Part shown: positions 1-6,471 of the stretch, piece after piece | Layout of the letters: the number at the start of each line of letters is the position of its first letter | Numbering within the stretch: position 1 is the stretch's first letter | Translations under genes and position numbers: made by a program | Source of the DNA: a virus | Lineage: Duplodnaviria; Heunggongvirae; Uroviricota; Caudoviricetes | Length of the DNA stretch: 12,463 nt | Direction: 5' to 3' (one strand) | Virus record (IMG/VR): IMGVR_UViG_2531839234_000008 | The notes under the pieces: model-generated | Database searches by the model: none | The model's input: the letters and a program-made list of their open reading frames with translations, nothing else | Told to the model about the DNA's origin: nothing

Positions 1-163
1 CAATTTCAGAACATCGACGCTTCTTCGCAAAATAAACCAGGGCGATATCAAAGGCGCATGTGATCAGCTACGGCGCTGGACATACGCTGGCGGTAAGCAA
101 TGGAAAGGGCTGATGACTCGCCGCGAGATTGAGCGTGAAGTCTGTTTGTGGGGGCAACAATGA
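1..163 (+). CDS. R: Phage endolysin (lysozyme), C-terminal fragment; 5' end lies outside the window
   Basis: Frame beginning at nt 2 is open from the window edge to TGA at 161-163 and translates to ...[53 protein letters not shown], which I recognise as the C-terminal tail of lambdoid prophage endolysins. Its stop overlaps the Rz start (ATGA at 160-163). Position immediately upstream of Rz fits the lysis cassette. Confidence 0.75.
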
Positions 164-597
164 GCAGGGTAACCGTTATTATCTCCGCTCTGGTTATCTG
201 CATTATCGCCTGCCTGTCATGGGCTGTTAATCATTACCGTGATAACGCCATCGCCTACAAAGAGCAGCGCGATAAAGCCACATCCATCATCGCTGATATG
301 CAGAAGCGGCAACGTGATGTAGCAGAACTTGACGCCAGATACACAAAGGAGCTTGCTGATGCTAATGCGACTATCGAAAGTCTCCGTGCTGATGTTTCTG
401 CTGGGCGTAAGCGCCTGCAAGTCTCCGCCACCTGTGCAAAGTCAACGACCGGAGCCAGCAGCATGGGCGATGGAGAAAGCCCAGGACTTACAGCAGATGC
501 TGAACTCAATTATTACCGTCTCCGAGGTGGAATCGACAAGATAACCGCGCAGGTTAACTACCTGCAGGAGTACATCAGGACGCAATGCCTGAAATAA
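160..597 (+). CDS. Rz: Rz i-spanin (inner-membrane spanin)
   Basis: Translation [39 protein letters not shown]...YTKELADA... closely matches lambda Rz as I remember it (N-terminal TM helix, coiled-coil periplasmic domain). The ORF track starts at GTG 148, but ATG at 160 matches the lambda Rz N-terminus and is coupled to the endolysin stop. Ends TAA 595-597. Confidence 0.9.
359..544 (+). CDS. Rz1: Rz1 o-spanin (outer-membrane lipoprotein), embedded in the +1 frame of Rz
   Basis: The +1 frame inside Rz encodes [20 protein letters not shown]|[13 protein letters not shown]..., a signal peptide with a lipobox-like VSAC followed by a proline-rich segment, as in lambda Rz1. AAAGGAG at 344-350 sits 8 nt before ATG 359. 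An alternative start is ATG 365. Confidence 0.75.
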
Positions 598-630
598 TTT
601 TTTTTGCAAATCACAAAGTCCATTTAATGA

Positions 631-654
631 GCCTCGCGATGCGGGGCTTTTTGC
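631..654 (+). terminator. Putative intrinsic terminator, first of two after Rz
   Basis: GCCTCGC (631-637) pairs with GCGGGGC (641-647) as a 7-bp stem (one G-U), loop GAT, followed by CTTTTTG. A T8 run (598-605) also follows the Rz stop directly. Confidence 0.45.
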
Positions 655-659
655 AATAA

Positions 660-684
660 ATGCGTACCGCAACGCATGTTTTTT
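660..684 (+). terminator. Putative intrinsic terminator, second of two after Rz
   Basis: ATGCGT (660-665) and ACGCAT (672-677) form a perfect 6-bp stem with a 6-nt loop, followed by G and a T6 run (679-684). Confidence 0.5.
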
Positions 685-799
685 ACACCGAACCTGCCCC
701 TTTGGAATGGGCCTTTGAGGATACCAGTTAGTGCTGGCGAGCCTCGGTGGGCTGGTTTCCTGTGCGGCAAAGGTTCATTTCAAAGAGTAGGTACACGCT

Positions 800-1297
800 A
801 TGAAATCATTAACCCTCTTCAATCAACCAATCCGTATCGGTGAAGATGGCATGATCTGCCTCACTGATATGTGGAAAGCCAGTGGTAAAAGTGAATCTGA
901 ATCTCCGTACCACTACCTGCGAAACAAGCAGACCAAAGAGTTCTTGGCTGAGCTGGAGAAAAACCACGAATCTGTGGTTTTTACGGAACGCGGTGCGCAC
1001 GGTGGAACTTATGGCGGAAAGTTCGTTGCTTATGATTACGCAGCATGGCTAAACCCCGGATTTAAATATGCAGCCTATAAAGTCCTCGATGATTACTTCA
1101 CCGGAGAGCTTCATCATCGGAACAGCTTAAGTGCGCAGCTCAACATGAAATGTCATGAGTTTGATCAGAAAAAAGACATGGCGAGCTTCTGTGGACAAGG
1201 CCTCGCGGCATGGCGCTACACGAAACCTGGTTTGATCGCTGAAATTAACTCCCTGGCTAACCAGTTGCAGATTTCGATCCCCGGGCTTCCGGGATGA
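800..1297 (+). CDS. KilA-N-like domain protein, accessory moron gene of unknown function
   Basis: 165-aa ORF. The N-terminal part (...FNQPIRIGEDGMICLTDMWKASGKSESESPYHYLRNKQTKEFLAELEKN...) fits the pattern I associate with KilA-N/APSES-type phage DNA-binding domains (IR-x-DG-x-L-D-x-A-G...P-x-x-(W/Y)L...T-x-E(L/F)). It lies between the lysis cassette and cos, a known moron hotspot in lambdoid phages. Shine-Dalgarno is weak. Domain call is from memory, not a profile search. Confidence 0.6.
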   Translation: MKSLTLFNQPIRIGEDGMICLTDMWKASGKSESESPYHYLRNKQTKEFLAELEKNHESVVFTERGAHGGTYGGKFVAYDYAAWLNPGFKYAAYKVLDDYFTGELHHRNSLSAQLNMKCHEFDQKKDMASFCGQGLAAWRYTKPGLIAEINSLANQLQISIPGLPG

Positions 1298-1551
1298 GTG
1301 ATCGTGTCATTGAATGCGCCTCCAGAGCGGGGCGCGACTTCTCAGAGTTCATGAAAGGCGAGAAGGGTATGATGGAAGCATTGGCCTCGGTGGATGAGTT
1401 TGGCGAGCAGCTGCGCCTCAACGGCTGTGTCAATCATCACTTTGTTAGCTACATGATGCGGAACTCGATCATGCAGGCATTCATGGACATGGCAAAAGCC
1501 GAGAGGAAAGAAGAGCGCCGGCGTAAGCGAGCGGAAGCAAAAGCGAAGTAG
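1294..1551 (+). CDS. Hypothetical small protein (85 aa) with a basic Lys/Arg/Glu-rich C-terminus, translationally coupled to the upstream gene
   Basis: ATG at 1294 overlaps the stop of the preceding ORF (ATGA, 1294-1297). Same-strand ORF ending TAG 1549-1551 and followed immediately by a strong hairpin. C-terminus AKAERKEERRRKRAEAKAK is highly charged. No homolog recognised. The frame is closed by TAA at 1258-1260, so this is not a frameshifted continuation of the KilA-N ORF. Confidence 0.5.
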   Translation: MSDRVIECASRAGRDFSEFMKGEKGMMEALASVDEFGEQLRLNGCVNHHFVSYMMRNSIMQAFMDMAKAERKEERRRKRAEAKAK

Positions 1552-1559
1552 CCATTACA

Positions 1560-1581
1560 AAGCCCATCTACTGGTGGGCTT
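1560..1581 (+). other. Strong hairpin directly after the moron stop codon (possible terminator or RNA-stability element, no U-tract)
   Basis: AAGCCCATC (1560-1568) pairs with GGTGGGCTT (1573-1581) as a roughly 9-bp stem (one G-U) with loop TACT, 9 nt after the TAG stop. It is followed by GATAATGG, not a T-run, so it is not a canonical intrinsic terminator. Confidence 0.35.
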
Positions 1582-1970
1582 GATAATGGCTTATACCCTA
1601 CACGGGATAACTTAACTGATATCCCTTTTAACGGATAAAGGTATTCAAGCCTGACACATCATGCGCTGTATCGTCGCTGTATTTCCGCATTAACCATGAC
1701 CGTAGCCCGACGGGGAATTCCTTCTGCGCGAGTGTGCGGGAATAATCAAAAACGATGCACACCGGGTTTTTACCGCGCTAATGATTCGCGGGTTTGTCCC
1801 TCATGCTCGCCAGTCCTGTGCGGGGGTGGAAGAAACAGGACACTCACACAGATTCTTGTGGGTCGATGCTATTCCTTTCTGGATTATCCCGATGCCATTC
1901 ATGCAAGGGCTGTATCAGACGTTCGTCATGGCTTTCAGGCTGACGGCTCCTCCCGGTGGGGTGGCCTGCC

Positions 1971-1990
1971 ACGGGGCGGGAGCGTCGCGG
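1971..1990. other. cosN: Candidate cosN (cohesive-end nicking site) of a lambda-like packaging system
   Basis: ACGGGGCGGGAGCGTCGCGG (1971-1990) versus the lambda cos junction as I recall it, ACGGGGCGGCGACCTCGCGG: same length, identical flanks (ACGGGGCGG ... TCGCGG), 15 of 20 positions identical, divergence only in the central 5 nt. It sits about 170 bp upstream of the small terminase start, as lambda cosN does relative to Nu1. By analogy the 12-nt cohesive end would be GGGCGGGAGCGT (1974-1985). Confidence 0.5.
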
Positions 1991-2150
1991 AAAAAGGCTA
2001 GTTTTTGCATTTTTATCGGCCACCATCATCTTTGCATCTTATTGATTATTAATGGTTATTTGTTTTTTGTATGTCGAATTGAGTGTTTTTTGTTCGACAT
2101 CGAACGCGTTTTCTTAAAGTTGTTCGCACGATGCATGTTTAAAGCTCTCC
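1991..2150. promoter_or_regulatory. cosB: Candidate cosB-like region (terminase small-subunit/IHF binding) between cosN and the terminase genes
   Basis: AT-rich segment between the cosN candidate and the terminase RBS. It contains a perfect 8-bp inverted repeat, ATGTCGAA (2071-2078) and TTCGACAT (2093-2100), with a 14-bp T-rich spacer. It also has three TGCAT-core repeats (TTTGCATTTTTA 2004-2015, TTTGCATCTTAT 2031-2042, ATGCATGTTTA 2131-2141) and a related TGTTCGCAC at 2121-2129. The role is inferred from position only. Confidence 0.35.
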
Positions 2151-2159
2151 GGAGGAAAT

Positions 2160-2651
2160 ATGGATCATGAGTTGAAAAACCTGGTGCTGAATATTAATCA
2201 ACTGGCGGCTTTATCTGGTCTGCACCGCCAGACTGTCGTGGCAAGACTGAAAAACATTCGTCCCGCTGGTGGACATGACAAACTCAAGCTATACCGGTTG
2301 ACCGATATTCTGACTGAATTTATGGGGTTACCACCGCCGGTTGCTGAGGGCGAAATGGATCCACATGAACGCAAAGCCTGGTATCAGTCTGAACGTGAGC
2401 GTCTTAAGTTCGAACAGGAAACGGCACAACTCATTCCGGCCAGTGATGTCAGACGGGAGTTTGCCATCTGGGCAAAAGCGGTCGTGCAGGTGCTGGAGAC
2501 ATTACCGGATATTCTGGAACGTGACTGTGGTCTGCAGCCTGCCGCTGTGAGCCGTGTTCAGTCCATTATTGATGATCTGCGCGATCAGATAGCCCTGCGG
2601 GTGACCGAAGCAGGTGCGGATGATGAGGAGGAATTACAGCAGGAGGAGTAA
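2160..2651 (+). CDS. Terminase small subunit (Nu1-like, N-terminal helix-turn-helix)
   Basis: 163-aa ORF with GGAGG 4 nt upstream of ATG 2160. N-terminus ...INQLAALSGLHRQTVVARL... looks like an HTH. Acidic C-terminus. Its stop overlaps the large terminase start (TAATG at 2649-2653). Position is immediately after cos and before the large subunit. Confidence 0.75.
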   Translation: MDHELKNLVLNINQLAALSGLHRQTVVARLKNIRPAGGHDKLKLYRLTDILTEFMGLPPPVAEGEMDPHERKAWYQSERERLKFEQETAQLIPASDVRREFAIWAKAVVQVLETLPDILERDCGLQPAAVSRVQSIIDDLRDQIALRVTEAGADDEEELQQEE

Positions 2652-4753
2652 TGCTGAATCAGGAAACCGCAAAGGCAGCACGAACCGATTCAGGTTATAT
2701 CCTTCGCGCACCGAGACGAATGCGGGTTGCTGATGCCGTTGCTCAGTATATGCGGGTGCCCATGGGGGCCGGGAACTCAGTCCCGTGGGATCCGCTGGTG
2801 GCACCGTATGTTATTGAGCCGATGAACTGCCTGGCCTCGCGTGAATACGACGCAGTGATATTTGTTGGCCCGGCACGAACCGGCAAGACTATCGGCCTGA
2901 TTGACGGCTGGGTGATTTACAACGTGATTTGCGATCCTGCGGATATGCCGATCATTCAGATGACGGAGGAAAAAGCCCGCGAACACTCCAAAAAACGACT
3001 CGCCAGAACGTTTCGCGTCAGCCCGGAAGTGGTCAGTCGCCTGAGTCCGAACAAAAATGACAACAACGTTTATGACAGAACATTCCTTGCTGGCAACTAC
3101 CTGAAAATCGGCTGGCCGTCAGTCAATATCATGTCCTCATCAGATTATAAATGCGTGGCGCTGACGGATTATGACCGTTTTCCGGAAGATATTGATGGCG
3201 AGGGGGATGCCTTCTCTCTTGCCTCAAAACGTACCACCACATTTATGTCCAGTGGTATGACGCTGGTGGAGAGTTCCCCCGGCAGGGATGTGAAGGATGT
3301 GAAATGGCGACGGACTTCACCGCATGAGGCTCCACCAACCACGGGGATACTGTCGCTCTATAACCGTGGCGATCGCCGTCGCTGGTACTGGCCCTGTCCA
3401 CACTGTGGTGAGTATTTTCAGCCCTGCGGCGATGTGGTTGCTGGTTTCCGTGATATTGCCGATCCCGTGCTGGCAAGTGAGGCGGCTTATATTCAGTGTC
3501 CTTCCTGTTCAGGACGGATTATGCCTGAACAAAAACGTGAGCTGAACGGACGTGGGGTCTGGTTGCGGGATGGTGAATCCATCAATGCGGATGGTAGTCG
3601 TTATGGTGATCCCCGACGCTCACGTATTGCGTCATTCTGGATGGAGGGTCCGGCAGCTGCTTACCAGACACTCTCGCAACTCGTTTACAAACTGCTTACT
3701 GCAGAACAGGAATACGAGACAACCGGAAGTGAAGAAACACTCAAGACGGTTATCAATACCGACTGGGGATTACCTTATCTTCCCCGCGCCAGCATGGAGC
3801 AACGAAAAAGTGAACTGCTTGAGCAGCGGGCAGAGCCAGTTCCTTCCAGCAGTGTGCCGGATGGCGTTAATTTCCTTGTGGCGACAGTGGATGTGCAGGC
3901 GGGACGTCATCGCCGTTTTGTGGTTCAGGTAACGGGCTATGGCAGCCGTGGCGAACGCTGGATTATTGATCGTTACAACATCACGCAGTCATTGCGCGGT
4001 GACAGCGACGGTGAGAGCCAGCGAATTGATCCGGCCAGCTATCCGGAAGACTGGGATGTCCTGCTGACGGATGTTTTTCATAAAAGCTGGCCGCTGGCCT
4101 CCGATCCTTCTCAACAAATGCGACTGATGGCAATGGCGGTGGACTCCGGCGGTGAAGACGGGGTCACTGATAATGCCTATAAATTCTGGCGTCGTTGCCG
4201 TCGTGATGGCCTTGGTAAACGTATTTACCTGTTTAAGGGCGACAGCATCCGGCGCGCAAAACTGATCACCCGTACATTCCCTGATAACACCGGACGAACG
4301 GGCCGACGGGCGCAGGCCGCAGGTGATGTGCCGCTCTGGCTTCTTCAGACGGATGCACTGAAAGACCGGGTGAATAACGCGTTATGGCGTGACTCTCCAG
4401 GTCCCGGCTATGTGCATTTCCCTGACTGGCTGGGGAGCTGGTTTTACGACGAACTGACGTATGAAGAGCGGAGTAGTGACGGGAAATGGAGTAAGCCGGG
4501 TCGCGGTGCCAACGAAGCTTTTGACCTGATGGTGTATGCCGAGGCTCTGGTCATTCTGCATGGATACGAAAAGATCCGCTGGCCGGATGCACCGGGGTGG
4601 GCGAGCCGGGAAACCTGGCTGGAGAGTGTCCCGGACAGTACCGAACCGTCACCCTCACCGGAACCGGTATCCACGCCTGTTAAAAAACAAAAACGGAAGA
4701 AAACAGTAACTGACGATGTTAACCCCTGGCTGACTTCCGGAGGATGGTTATGA
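2651..4753 (+). CDS. A: Terminase large subunit (lambda gpA family: ATPase plus endonuclease)
   Basis: 700-aa ORF with AGGAGGAG RBS. Walker A P-loop GPARTGKT at nt 2867-2890. Cys-rich segment WYWPCPHCGEYFQPCGD...CPSCSG resembles the lambda gpA ACPHCGEE region. Other segments (VNTDWGLPYLPR, ANEAFDLMVYAEAL) resemble remembered lambda gpA blocks. Confidence 0.92.
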   Translation: MLNQETAKAARTDSGYILRAPRRMRVADAVAQYMRVPMGAGNSVPWDPLVAPYVIEPMNCLASREYDAVIFVGPARTGKTIGLIDGWVIYNVICDPADMPIIQMTEEKAREHSKKRLARTFRVSPEVVSRLSPNKNDNNVYDRTFLAGNYLKIGWPSVNIMSSSDYKCVALTDYDRFPEDIDGEGDAFSLASKRTTTFMSSGMTLVESSPGRDVKDVKWRRTSPHEAPPTTGILSLYNRGDRRRWYWPCPHCGEYFQPCGDVVAGFRDIADPVLASEAAYIQCPSCSGRIMPEQKRELNGRGVWLRDGESINADGSRYGDPRRSRIASFWMEGPAAAYQTLSQLVYKLLTAEQEYETTGSEETLKTVINTDWGLPYLPRASMEQRKSELLEQRAEPVPSSSVPDGVNFLVATVDVQAGRHRRFVVQVTGYGSRGERWIIDRYNITQSLRGDSDGESQRIDPASYPEDWDVLLTDVFHKSWPLASDPSQQMRLMAMAVDSGGEDGVTDNAYKFWRRCRRDGLGKRIYLFKGDSIRRAKLITRTFPDNTGRTGRRAQAAGDVPLWLLQTDALKDRVNNALWRDSPGPGYVHFPDWLGSWFYDELTYEERSSDGKWSKPGRGANEAFDLMVYAEALVILHGYEKIRWPDAPGWASRETWLESVPDSTEPSPSPEPVSTPVKKQKRKKTVTDDVNPWLTSGGWL

Positions 4754-4962
4754 ACCAGAATGATATCGAAGCCATGATTCAGCGTTATACGGAAGCTGAA
4801 ATGGCGGTGCTGGACGGAAAATCCGTCACCTTTAATGGTCAGCAGATGACCATGGAAAACTTATCTGAGATCCGGCAGGGACGGCAGGAGTGGGAGCGCC
4901 GCCTTGCGGCTCTGATTACACGACGACGGGGGCATCCCGGGTACCGGCTGGCGAGGTTCTGA
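4750..4962 (+). CDS. W: gpW-like head-tail joining protein
   Basis: 70-aa product MNQNDIEAMIQRYTEAEMAVLDGKSVTFNGQQMTMENLSEIRQGRQEWERRLAALITRRRGHPGYRLARF resembles lambda gpW, including the C-terminal RRRG motif. GGAGG at 4739-4743 lies 6 nt before ATG 4750, which overlaps the large terminase stop (ATGA). The ORF-track start at 4744 has no spacer to the RBS. Confidence 0.8.
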   Translation: MNQNDIEAMIQRYTEAEMAVLDGKSVTFNGQQMTMENLSEIRQGRQEWERRLAALITRRRGHPGYRLARF

Positions 4963-6471
4963 TGGCAATTCTTGATGATGTGATTGGCGTTTTTTCACCA
5001 GGATGGAAAGCGGCAAGGCTGCGTTCCCGTGCGGTGATCCAGGCTTATGAGGCCGTAAAAACGACGCGGACACACAAAGCCCGGCGGGAAAACCGAACTG
5101 CCGACCAGTTAAGCCAGTACGGGGCCGTGTCGTTACGTGAGCAGGCCCGTTACCTTGATAACAACCACGATCTGGTTATTGGTGTATTTGACAAGCTGGA
5201 AGAACGGGTGGTGGGGAAAAACGGGATTATTGTCGAGCCACATCCGGTATTACGCAATGGGGCCATTGCCCGTGATCTGGCCGCGGAGATACGCACCCGA
5301 TGGAGTGAATGGTCTGTCAGTCCGGAAGTCACCGGGCAGTTTACCCGTCCGATGCTGGAACGTCTGATGCTGCGTACCTGGCTGCGCGATGGTGAGGTGT
5401 TTGCCCAGATGGTTTCCGGGCGCATAAACAGCCTGACGCCTTCTGCCGGTGTTCATTTCTGGCTGGAGGCGCTCGAGCCAGACTTTATTCCCATGACCAG
5501 TGATGAGAGCAACAGGCTGAATCAGGGCGTGTTTGTTGATGACTGGGGGCGTCCCGAAAAATATCTGGTGTATAAAAGCCGTCCCGTATCCGGACGGCAG
5601 ATGGAAACCAAAGAAGTGGATGCAGAGCGAATGCTGCATCTTAAATTTGTTCGCCGTCTGCACCAGATGCGCGGGACGTCTTTGTTGTCCGGTGTGCTGA
5701 TCCGCCTCAGTGCCCTGAAAGAGTATGAGGATTCTGAGCTGACTGCAGCAAGGATCGCCGCTGCTCTGGGGATGTACATCCGGAAAGGCGATGGGCAGAG
5801 CTATGAACCGGATGGTAATGGCAGCAAGGATAAGGAACGCGAGCTTACCATTCAGCCAGGCATTATTTACGACGATCTGAAACCCGGCGAAGAAATCGGA
5901 ATGGTGAAGTCGGATCGCCCCAATCCTAACCTTGAAACTTTTCGTAATGGTCAGTTGCGTGCCGTGGCGGCGGGCAGTCGTCTGAATTTTTTCCAGTACA
6001 GCGCGCAACTATAACGGCACTTACAGCGCCCAGCGTCAGGAGCTGGTTGAATCCACTGATGGCTACCTGATCCTGCAGGACTGGTTTATTGGTGCCGTCA
6101 CCCGCCCGATGTATCGTGCCTGGCTGAAACAGGCTGTGGCATCCGGTGTTATCAGGCTACCCCGCGATCTTGACCGTTCTTCACTGTATACCGCGGTGTA
6201 TTCCGGACCGGTGATGCCGTGGATTGACCCTGTTAAGGAGGCTGAGGCCTGGAAAATTCAGATTCGTGGTGGAGCAGCGACAGAATCAGACTGGGTACGT
6301 GCAGGTGGTCGTAATCCGGATGATGTCAAACGTCGGCGCAAGGCCGAAATTGATGAAAACCGCAAGCTGGATCTGGTATTTGATACCGATCCGGCCAGTG
6401 ATAAAGGAGGCAGCAGTGCCGCAACGAAACGACAGGAGCCGCAGCACACCGACGACCAGTCCGAAGAATAA
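4962..6471 (+). pseudogene. B: Portal protein (lambda gpB-like) interrupted by a single frameshift near a T6 run (5987-5992); pseudogene or sequencing error
   Basis: ORF from ATG 4962 (GAGG 5 nt upstream, coupled to the W stop) runs to TAA 6012-6014. The +1 frame is open from 5986 and continues to TAA 6469-6471. Across the junction the downstream frame reads ...LNFSSTARNYNGTYSAQRQ..., which aligns with the lambda gpB block ...SYEQLSRNYAQMSYSTAR... as I recall it, so both pieces are one portal gene. Removing one T from TTTTTT (5987-5992) restores a single ORF of about 502 aa. Confidence 0.8.

Follow-up and report, generated by a model that had tools for sequence, protein, structure and literature searches.

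Introduction

Rha is an accessory, non-essential protein of phages P22 and phi80 (P22 orf201; ES18 gp79), and its gene lies directly after Rz in the late operon. The IHF-dependent phenotype of Rha has been known since 1985, and we know of no mechanism for it. The subject of the present study is a pair of coupled genes, ORF1 and ORF2, which lie in the corresponding slot of a lambdoid E. coli prophage (IMG/VR record IMGVR_UViG_2531839234_000008; the whole stretch of 12,463 nucleotides that was analyzed is called the window). According to a secondary citation, rha belongs to the late operon, and its product prevents the phage from growing in hosts deficient in IHF (PMC4936722).

The gene pair is already known, as identical copies have been deposited and annotated. 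In phage HK620, hkbK is 93% identical to ORF1 and hkbL is 100% identical to ORF2. The 'kilA' gene and its neighbor in the Stx phages 2851, 1717 and Stx2a_WGPS encode proteins 100% identical to ORF1 and ORF2. In all of these phages the pair is in the same place as in the window, and only the downstream packaging module differs. Since 2001 the annotation of hkbK/hkbL and of the Stx 'kilA' genes has read 'unknown' or 'similar to P1 KilA'.

We propose, with a probability of roughly 60%, that the pair is a mobile, late-phase, Rha-like DNA-binding cassette of the Rha or 'Bro-network' class, acting as a lytic regulator or in the control of competitors.

Results

The leader of ORF1

Nucleotides 686–786 of the window (101 nt) are 99% identical to the sequence located 5′ of the rha genes of P22 and BTP1 and of related rha genes. 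The leader of ORF1 forms one long hairpin (Table 1), and none of 200 shuffled sequences folds equally well. In the minimum free energy (MFE) structure of this window, the base of the stem, nt 692–697 with nt 787–792, pairs the Shine-Dalgarno sequence.

RNAalifold identified compensatory changes in 8 of 33 pairs among 10 diverse sequences. A covariance model built from these 10 copies finds the leader in 17 distinct loci. In the 17 distinct sequences 95.2% of the cells are paired, versus 33–48% when the partners are slid, and 24 of the 33 pairs (a somewhat inflated count, see Discussion) change on both sides. None of 500 shuffles reaches the observed values. The frequent G-U pairs restrict the structure to the sense strand, which points to a role of the leader at the RNA level.

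The covariance model detects the leader 5′ of every late-operon cassette searched, including the divergent HK97-type and Klebsiella copies. The genes behind the leader encode KilA-N+ORF11CD3, KilA-N+P63C, pRha+ORF11CD3, pRha only (ES18 gp79) or HNH-AP2 proteins, and all of them reside in late operons. In Klebsiella phage RothC, for instance, the leader precedes an HNH-AP2 homing endonuclease gene directly before the holin gene. The model does not detect the leader in immI-type loci. An Rfam search of window nt 1–2700 with E up to 1 gave only a chance match to a eukaryotic long noncoding RNA (nt 1804–2094, below the gathering score), and none for the leader or the 3′ hairpin described below. 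We did not find an earlier description of the leader hairpin.

The same comparison touches the annotation of P22. In NC_002371.2, the annotated GTG start of rha falls within the conserved leader hairpin (nt 39575–39643). The ATG at nt 39644 (MNELIANHDF…) aligns with the start of ORF1 and follows a Shine-Dalgarno-like sequence. Thus the first 23 residues of P22 Rha as deposited are probably not translated.

The ORF1 protein

The sequence-only reading described ORF1 as KilA-N-like, and for the N-terminus a profile search bears this out. The KilA-N profile (PF04383) covers residues 9–101, its score of 58.4 bits exceeds the cut-off of 23.8 (E 7e-16), and no structural or lysis family was found for ORF1. 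The likeness to P1 KilA does not extend over the whole length, however, since the C-terminus is ORF11CD3 (PF10549, residues 109–161, 47.5 bits against a cut-off of 25) instead of KilA-C/ANT. The two families are the only ones found for ORF1 in the Pfam scan, which gave it no match to KilA-C/ANT (PF03374), P22_AR_N, P22_AR_C or Phage_pRha (PF09669).

The KilA-N domain agrees with the APSES-like DNA-binding fold. The ORF11CD3 part is modelled as a helical hairpin with helices at residues 86–131 and 134–156. ORF1 is a predicted DNA-binding protein that combines a KilA-N/APSES fold with an ORF11CD3 helical hairpin. A sequence search of solved structures with ORF1 and ORF2 returned nothing below E 0.18, and an NCBIfam search with both proteins returned nothing meaningful. 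In agreement with the sequence-only reading, the profile searches placed neither ORF1 nor ORF2 in a family of lysis or morphogenesis proteins.

ORF2 and its neighbors

The sequence-only reading recognized no homologue of ORF2. The protein belongs, however, to PHROG 875 (E 3e-54), a family annotated as of unknown function, and its family comprises 138 clusters at 90% identity, from Enterobacterales wherever the source is named. The protein has no match in Pfam, NCBIfam or PDB, and its PADLOC match to QatB is at chance level (E 0.022). Its AlphaFold2 model (pLDDT 89) consists of three helices, residues 3–20, 26–42 and 48–84, and a basic C-terminal tail; fold comparison of the model matched nothing informative. 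The family is narrow. A profile search with the ORF2 alignment in 1.84 billion representative proteins found only 20 representatives at 50% identity, all of one family except for one T5orf172 fusion and one repeat artefact. The invariant motif of the family is ECASRxGRDFSxF...GEK...QL..GC.N.

Nearly all readable ORF2 homologues adjoin a Bro-network gene, either KilA-N or pRha, and usually lie just downstream of it, overlapping it or within 2 nt. The neighbor is KilA-N+ORF11CD3 in this window, HK620, Stx phages, Klebsiella and Enterobacter, and KilA-N+P63C in HK97, HK022, mEp234 and Klebsiella. In Rouxiella it is pRha+ANT, within an Arc/Arc/antirepressor operon resembling P22 immI, and in metagenomic contigs it is a 234-residue pRha protein. 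ORF2 follows a KilA-N gene in all but one of 80 IMG/VR loci that carry an identical copy, and most of these loci show the order Rz, KilA-N+ORF11CD3, ORF2, followed by varied terminases. We did not find an earlier description of this close adjacency between the 85-residue protein and Bro-network genes.

ORF2 also appears to have been exchanged between cassettes. From HK620 it shows a synonymous divergence (dS) of 0.02, versus 0.56 for ORF1; diverged ORF1 genes range from dS 0.3 to 0.56. A sharp mosaic junction lies at about nt 1309, which is 15 nt into ORF2. HK97 and mEp234 share nt 1309–1588 with the window at 98–99% DNA identity, whereas the KilA-N protein encoded upstream has 24% identity to ORF1 and another C-terminal domain. 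ORF2 is near-identical where ORF1 has diverged or carries another C-terminal domain, and so these comparisons identify it as a conserved partner and a recombination anchor.

Small ORFs after the pRha genes of IdasGreatGrand and Enterobacter phage MII were considered as distant ORF2 relatives and rejected, as they show no similarity. P22 was examined for an ORF2 remnant, and none was found. Protein P0132 (GCA_046521305.1, nt 3501–4988 of the extracted locus) carries an ORF2-like N-terminus fused to a T5orf172/MUG113 (GIY-YIG-like) domain. Its gene stands among tail genes, with a KilA-N+P63C gene directly downstream and an immI-like Arc/Arc/Bro-N operon nearby.

The slot and the inserted unit

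The pair is present in 389 of 5426 complete E. coli genomes, while at least 1283 E. coli genomes hold at least 80% of the whole window. Strain F6667 of O157:H7 lacks the gene pair, although its matched late region, which spans 89% of the window, is 99.8% identical. About 209 bp replace window nt 591–1550 in this strain, and in the empty-slot prophages (loci L008 and L009) homology resumes exactly at nt 1551. In F6667 the 3′ hairpin comes straight after the first terminator. From this comparison the inserted unit is nt ~655–1550, and it is dispensable accessory cargo.

The proposal that the interval between Rz and cos is a variable cargo slot was thus correct: the pair is missing from the closest prophage, and other relatives hold different genes. 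One of them has a ParDE toxin-antitoxin pair and IS600, and P22/BTP1 have rha and pid, the latter a lysogen-expressed moron in the opposite orientation. In NZ_CP065615.1 the IS600 copy and the ParD/ParE pair (nt 2019–3916 of the extracted locus) are inserted between the lysis gene and a KilA-N cassette; the slot gathers cargo, and the terminator hairpin of this locus has compensatory stem changes.

Where the cassette follows Rz, the packaging module behind it varies, with at least five kinds in all, among them cos-type, HNH-dependent and headful (P22/HK620) modules. It is also found within the tail-gene clusters of Klebsiella and Enterobacter phages or prophages, and is thus not tied to the junction of lysis and packaging genes. 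One of these insertions (L112 nt 2942–3764; L006, L011 and L014 nt ~2500–5250) separates the tape-measure gene from the distal-tail gene, and the others follow the genes for the major tail protein and DUF6246. The flanks of two Klebsiella loci, L011 and L014, were folded and show the same order: terminator, small hairpin, long leader, gene, ORF2 and hairpin.

The boundary hairpins

The hairpin at nt 629–652, t1, is a good intrinsic terminator by its sequence and forms the 5′ boundary of the slot. It was found in 6 of 6 aligned loci, the empty slot included, with compensatory stem changes in FDAARGOS_943 (CCACGT/GCGTGG). HK97 is common with the window over nt 160–652. Versions of this terminator travel with the cassette in the Klebsiella tail-gene insertions.

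The hairpin at nt 660–684 is the first element of the inserted cassette. It is semi-conserved, and its U tract is lineage-specific, being missing in P22, HK620 and FDAARGOS_943. Both hairpins had been called terminator-like; the name suits the first one, and the second is weak (z -1.4) and has a U tract only in this lineage.

The two-tier hairpin at nt 1550–1591 (inner stem exactly nt 1560–1581) has -27.2 kcal/mol and z -5.9, and none of 200 shuffles folds equally well. Compensatory changes occur in 6 of 17 pairs among 9 sequences. It lacks a U tract and is therefore not a canonical terminator. The 3′ element is seen after P22 rha (nt 1554–1609 of the window), in HK97, HK022 and HK620, and in the empty-slot prophages of O157. 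A terminator scan of nt 1–2700 gave 7 sites versus 2.3 ± 1.6 expected.

All three hairpins of the sequence-only reading do fold. They do not appear, however, to bracket an autonomous unit in the promoter-then-terminator sense of a classical moron. The first and the third adjoin each other in relatives without the two genes, so by this comparison they mark the slot and not the cassette.

Expression signals

A consensus sigma-70 scan of the plus strand at nt 598–800 found no promoter-like site. In a relaxed scan the -10 hexamer of the best candidate falls inside ORF1, and 42% of the shuffles score equally well. No LexA box was found within or near the cassette; the nearest LexA-box-like site is inside Rz, at nt 224–239. 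No match to the IHF consensus (WATCARNNNNTTR) is present in the window. With a good terminator upstream and no promoter or LexA box, the cassette would be reached only by Q-modified, terminator-resistant late transcription.

The rha gene provides an analogy. RNA-seq of BTP1 lysogens in 17 conditions gave 1.7–36 transcripts per million (TPM) for rha, which was classed as 'lytic' and tracks the terminase gene, and 41–1110 TPM for the adjacent pid (PMC7067206). Only bstA, cI, pid, gtrA and gtrC are highly expressed in these lysogens, and spontaneous induction in 0.2% of the cells is, according to the authors, the source of the lytic-gene signal (PMC7067206).

Layout of the window

The window starts with the 3′ part of a lysozyme gene, followed by Rz. 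All coordinates proposed for the two coupled ORFs were confirmed (Table 1). They overlap at ATGA, nt 1294–1297, where the ATG of ORF2 shares bases with the TGA of ORF1. The lambda counterpart of the cosN-like site is GGGCGGCGACCT followed by CGCGG, and its spacing to Nu1 is 191 nt versus 187 nt in the window. The gene pair is thus located between the lysis cassette and cos, since the cosN-like site precedes the terminase at a lambda-like spacing.

Table 1. Features of the window in and around the gene pair.
Feature	Position (nt)	Strand	Description
Rz	148–597	+	Pfam Phage_lysis, 1e-34
Terminator t1	629–652	+	GAGCCUCGC-GAU-GCGGGGCUU + U tract; 9 bp + U5; -14.4 kcal/mol, z -2.9
Second hairpin	660–684	+	AUGCGU-N6-ACGCAU + U6; 6 bp; -6.9 kcal/mol, z -1.4; weak; from the terminator scan
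5′ leader	692–792	+	One long imperfect hairpin; conserved core 700–785; MFE -48.7 kcal/mol, z -3.35
Shine-Dalgarno-like sequence	785–792	+	GAGUAGGU; 8 nt 5′ of the ORF1 ATG; read from the sequence
ORF1	800–1297	+	165 aa; KilA-N + ORF11CD3
ORF2	1294–1551	+	85 aa; same strand as ORF1
3′ boundary element	1550–1639	+	Two-tier hairpin 1550–1591, then conserved stretch with inverted repeat GGGATA-N10-TATCCC (1604–1625)
Stretch without credible genes	between ORF2 and small terminase		~600 nt
cosN-like site	1974–1985		Lambda-like, GGGCGGGAGCGT then CGCGG; 187 nt upstream of small terminase start
Small terminase	2160–2651		DUF1441
Large terminase	2651–4753		Lambda gpA-type
Head and tail genes	beyond large terminase

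Three ORFs were treated as non-coding. The one at nt 676–843 (55 aa) has no family match and overlaps the leader hairpin; those at nt 1696–2001 and 1781–2170 have no family match either and are in the pre-terminase stretch that holds the cos-like site. On the minus strand, nt 1628–1804 correspond to a 58-residue ORF of a relative (WP_001205133.1 in NZ_CP065615). It has an in-frame stop at codon 9 in the window and is probably not a functional gene there.

Inside Rz, in another frame of the plus strand, nt 329–544 encode two features expected of an Rz1 o-spanin, namely a lipoprotein-like signal (…LLGVSAC…) and a stretch rich in proline. Downstream, the portal gene is in two ORFs, nt 4890–6014 and 6109–6471, and two 'portal protein' coding sequences are also annotated in the 99.8%-identical O157:H7 prophages. 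Because the gene is split in the window and in these relatives, the prophage lineage may be defective in head assembly.

Discussion

In the proposed model, the unit of nt 655–1550 is inserted in the late operon between the post-Rz terminator and the conserved 3′ hairpin. Its transcription would depend entirely on late, Q-antiterminated RNA polymerase that reads on beyond the lysis genes. The leader would gate the translation of ORF1, with melting of its stem and RNase III-type processing as the two candidate mechanisms, and translation of ORF2 would follow through its coupling to ORF1. While the phage grows lytically, the two proteins would then act on DNA, either in regulation or in the control of competitors, a non-essential role in the niche of the P22/phi80 Rha. 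The insulation of the cassette by terminator(s) and leader suggests that its untimely expression is costly. By analogy with rha, we infer that the cassette is not a lysogen-expressed conversion gene.

Several points weigh against the model. RNase III processing and translational gating are read from the shape and position of the leader, and the pairing of the Shine-Dalgarno sequence is outside the conserved consensus. The alignment used for covariation was fitted to the model, which somewhat inflates the pair counts. The ORF2 family also occurs in immI-like loci without the leader, and the gene pair can thus do without it. Late-only expression would follow from an absent consensus promoter, the anatomy of the locus and the analogy with rha of P22/BTP1. 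The N-terminal domain of Rha differs from that of ORF1, and a consensus scan overlooks promoters that are weak, atypical, activator-dependent or served by alternative sigma factors.

If the cassette is insulated from lysogen expression as it appears to be, then a gene between lysis and packaging is not always a lysogenic-conversion moron, and the pair is not a first-rank virulence or defence candidate in Stx-phage-like prophages.

The model can be taken further. The insulated, covarying leader with its interchangeable DNA-binding effectors could together form a self-contained and so far undescribed unit of enterobacterial phages, a 'late-only expression unit' with a job in inter-element warfare during lytic growth. 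This is speculative, and we hold it to be unlikely as a whole. Within it, ORF2 would belong to a family of small partners of KilA-N effectors, also present in leaderless immI-type loci, and would be a new member of the Bro-network. If the unit were real, such warfare, for example the silencing or cross-induction of prophages or satellites in the same cell, could also account for the Rha phenotype.

An antirepressor function is one alternative to the late, Rha-like cassette. ORF1, with ORF2, could inactivate a CI-type repressor of its own phage, of co-resident prophages or of satellites, its late expression locking in lytic growth or cross-inducing neighbors in the manner of the Gifsy/Fels antirepressors. 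Trans-acting antirepressors with cross-talk between prophages are documented (PMC3121763), and ORF2 homologues do occur in P22 immI-like operons, in the order Arc, Arc, a P22_AR/Bro-N antirepressor, pRha(+ANT) and ORF2. PHROG and GenBank label relatives 'anti-repressor', but these labels are name transfer only. Characterized antirepressors (P22 Ant; the LexA-controlled Tum/GfoA type) differ from ORF1 in their domains and in the LexA box. ORF1 carries no ANT/KilA-C and no P22_AR_N/C, its N-terminal fold is of a DNA-binding type, and the cassette has no LexA box. Moreover, a product made after the late operon is on cannot trigger the induction of its own phage. An antirepressor is thus unlikely.

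The sequence-only reading favored a lysogen-expressed moron with a role in lysogenic conversion, as a toxin or in anti-phage defence, for instance by BstA-like abortive infection built on KilA-N. The slot is a genuine cargo hotspot, as ParDE + IS600 and the pid gene of P22 demonstrate. Like a classical moron (Juhala/Hendrix), the pair is present in some but not all close relatives, being absent from the two O157 prophages that share both flanks. A classical moron also has its own promoter, and here there is no sigma-70-like site and rha is at the level of lytic genes in BTP1 lysogens. Its downstream terminator could correspond to the hairpin at nt 1550–1591, which is strong and covarying but lacks a U tract and is also present in relatives without the cassette.

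PADLOC gave a weak, partial match of ORF1 to the candidate PDC-S22 (E 1e-8, KilA-N core). It gave no other model for ORF1 at E up to 1, and no named defence family such as BstA. BstA, a prophage abortive-infection defence protein (Owen et al. 2021), resembles ORF1 in being a prophage accessory protein with an N-terminal KilA-N-like DNA-binding domain. It differs in its high expression in BTP1 lysogens and in its second, C-terminal domain from residue ~156; ORF1 has 165 residues and an ORF11CD3 C-terminus that is not of the BstA type. BstA reportedly has about 300 residues and is encoded beside the repressor, while the cassette is within lysis or structural operons. The terminators and the structured leader precede the genes, with no upstream promoter or LexA box. 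A conversion, toxin or anti-defence role thus finds no positive evidence and is quite unlikely. Expression only with the late operon, which the sequence-only reading named as evidence against its proposal, is approached here through the analogy with rha of P22/BTP1.

The cassette could instead be selfish cargo, spreading by recombination at its conserved flanks (terminator and leader on one side, ORF2 and the 3′ hairpin on the other) with no benefit to the phage, the flanks making the insertion harmless. The leader before the homing endonuclease gene of RothC and the fusion of an ORF2-like domain to a T5orf172/GIY-YIG-like domain are in keeping with this idea. So is the low dS of ORF2 between phages with a diverged or different ORF1, which indicates frequent exchange near nt 1309. 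Neither ORF1 nor ORF2, however, has a nuclease or recombinase domain. Both genes are under strong purifying selection, with dN/dS of 0.04–0.06 for ORF1 (versus HK620 and an E. coli relative) and ~0.12 for ORF2 (versus a Klebsiella homologue), and the pair is intact in hundreds of genomes. We regard purely selfish cargo as improbable.

IHF acts at lambda cos. A cos-adjacent DNA-binding protein that aids or regulates the terminase, suggested by the ~420 bp from the cassette to the cosN-like site and by the IHF-dependent Rha phenotypes (PMC4936722), is very improbable, as the cassette travels with the Rz module and not with the terminase, precedes cos-type, HNH-dependent and headful modules alike, is found among tail genes far from any packaging site, and is absent from the closest relative, which packages without it.

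Comparison with known systems

The polycistronic mRNAs of T7 and lambda carry RNase III processing hairpins. The leader resembles them, by analogy, as a long imperfect, sense-specific hairpin between operon genes and just 5′ of a ribosome-binding site. It has no sequence similarity to them and no Rfam family.

P1 KilA shares the KilA-N domain with ORF1, with 29% identity over ORF1 residues 17–127. KilA differs in carrying KilA-C/ANT (from the Pfam description of ANT), which ORF1 lacks, and in its context, the P1 lytic replicon.

HK97, HK022 and mEp234 use the same slot, possess the leader as recognized by the covariance model, and have an ORF2 with 85–98% DNA identity. Their upstream protein differs: it has 242 residues, P63C in place of ORF11CD3, and a KilA-N domain only 24% identical to that of ORF1.

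Rha of P22 is a close described counterpart in the favored reading. Besides the slot, the leader and the 3′ hairpin element, it shares the C-terminal ORF11CD3 domain with ORF1. Its N-terminal domain is Phage_pRha (79.8 bits), instead of the KilA-N of ORF1, and rha has no ORF2 partner. The KilA-N genes, hkbK-hkbL among them, are thereby tied to P22 rha through leader, C-terminal domain and slot, and offer a comparative handle on the Rha phenotype.

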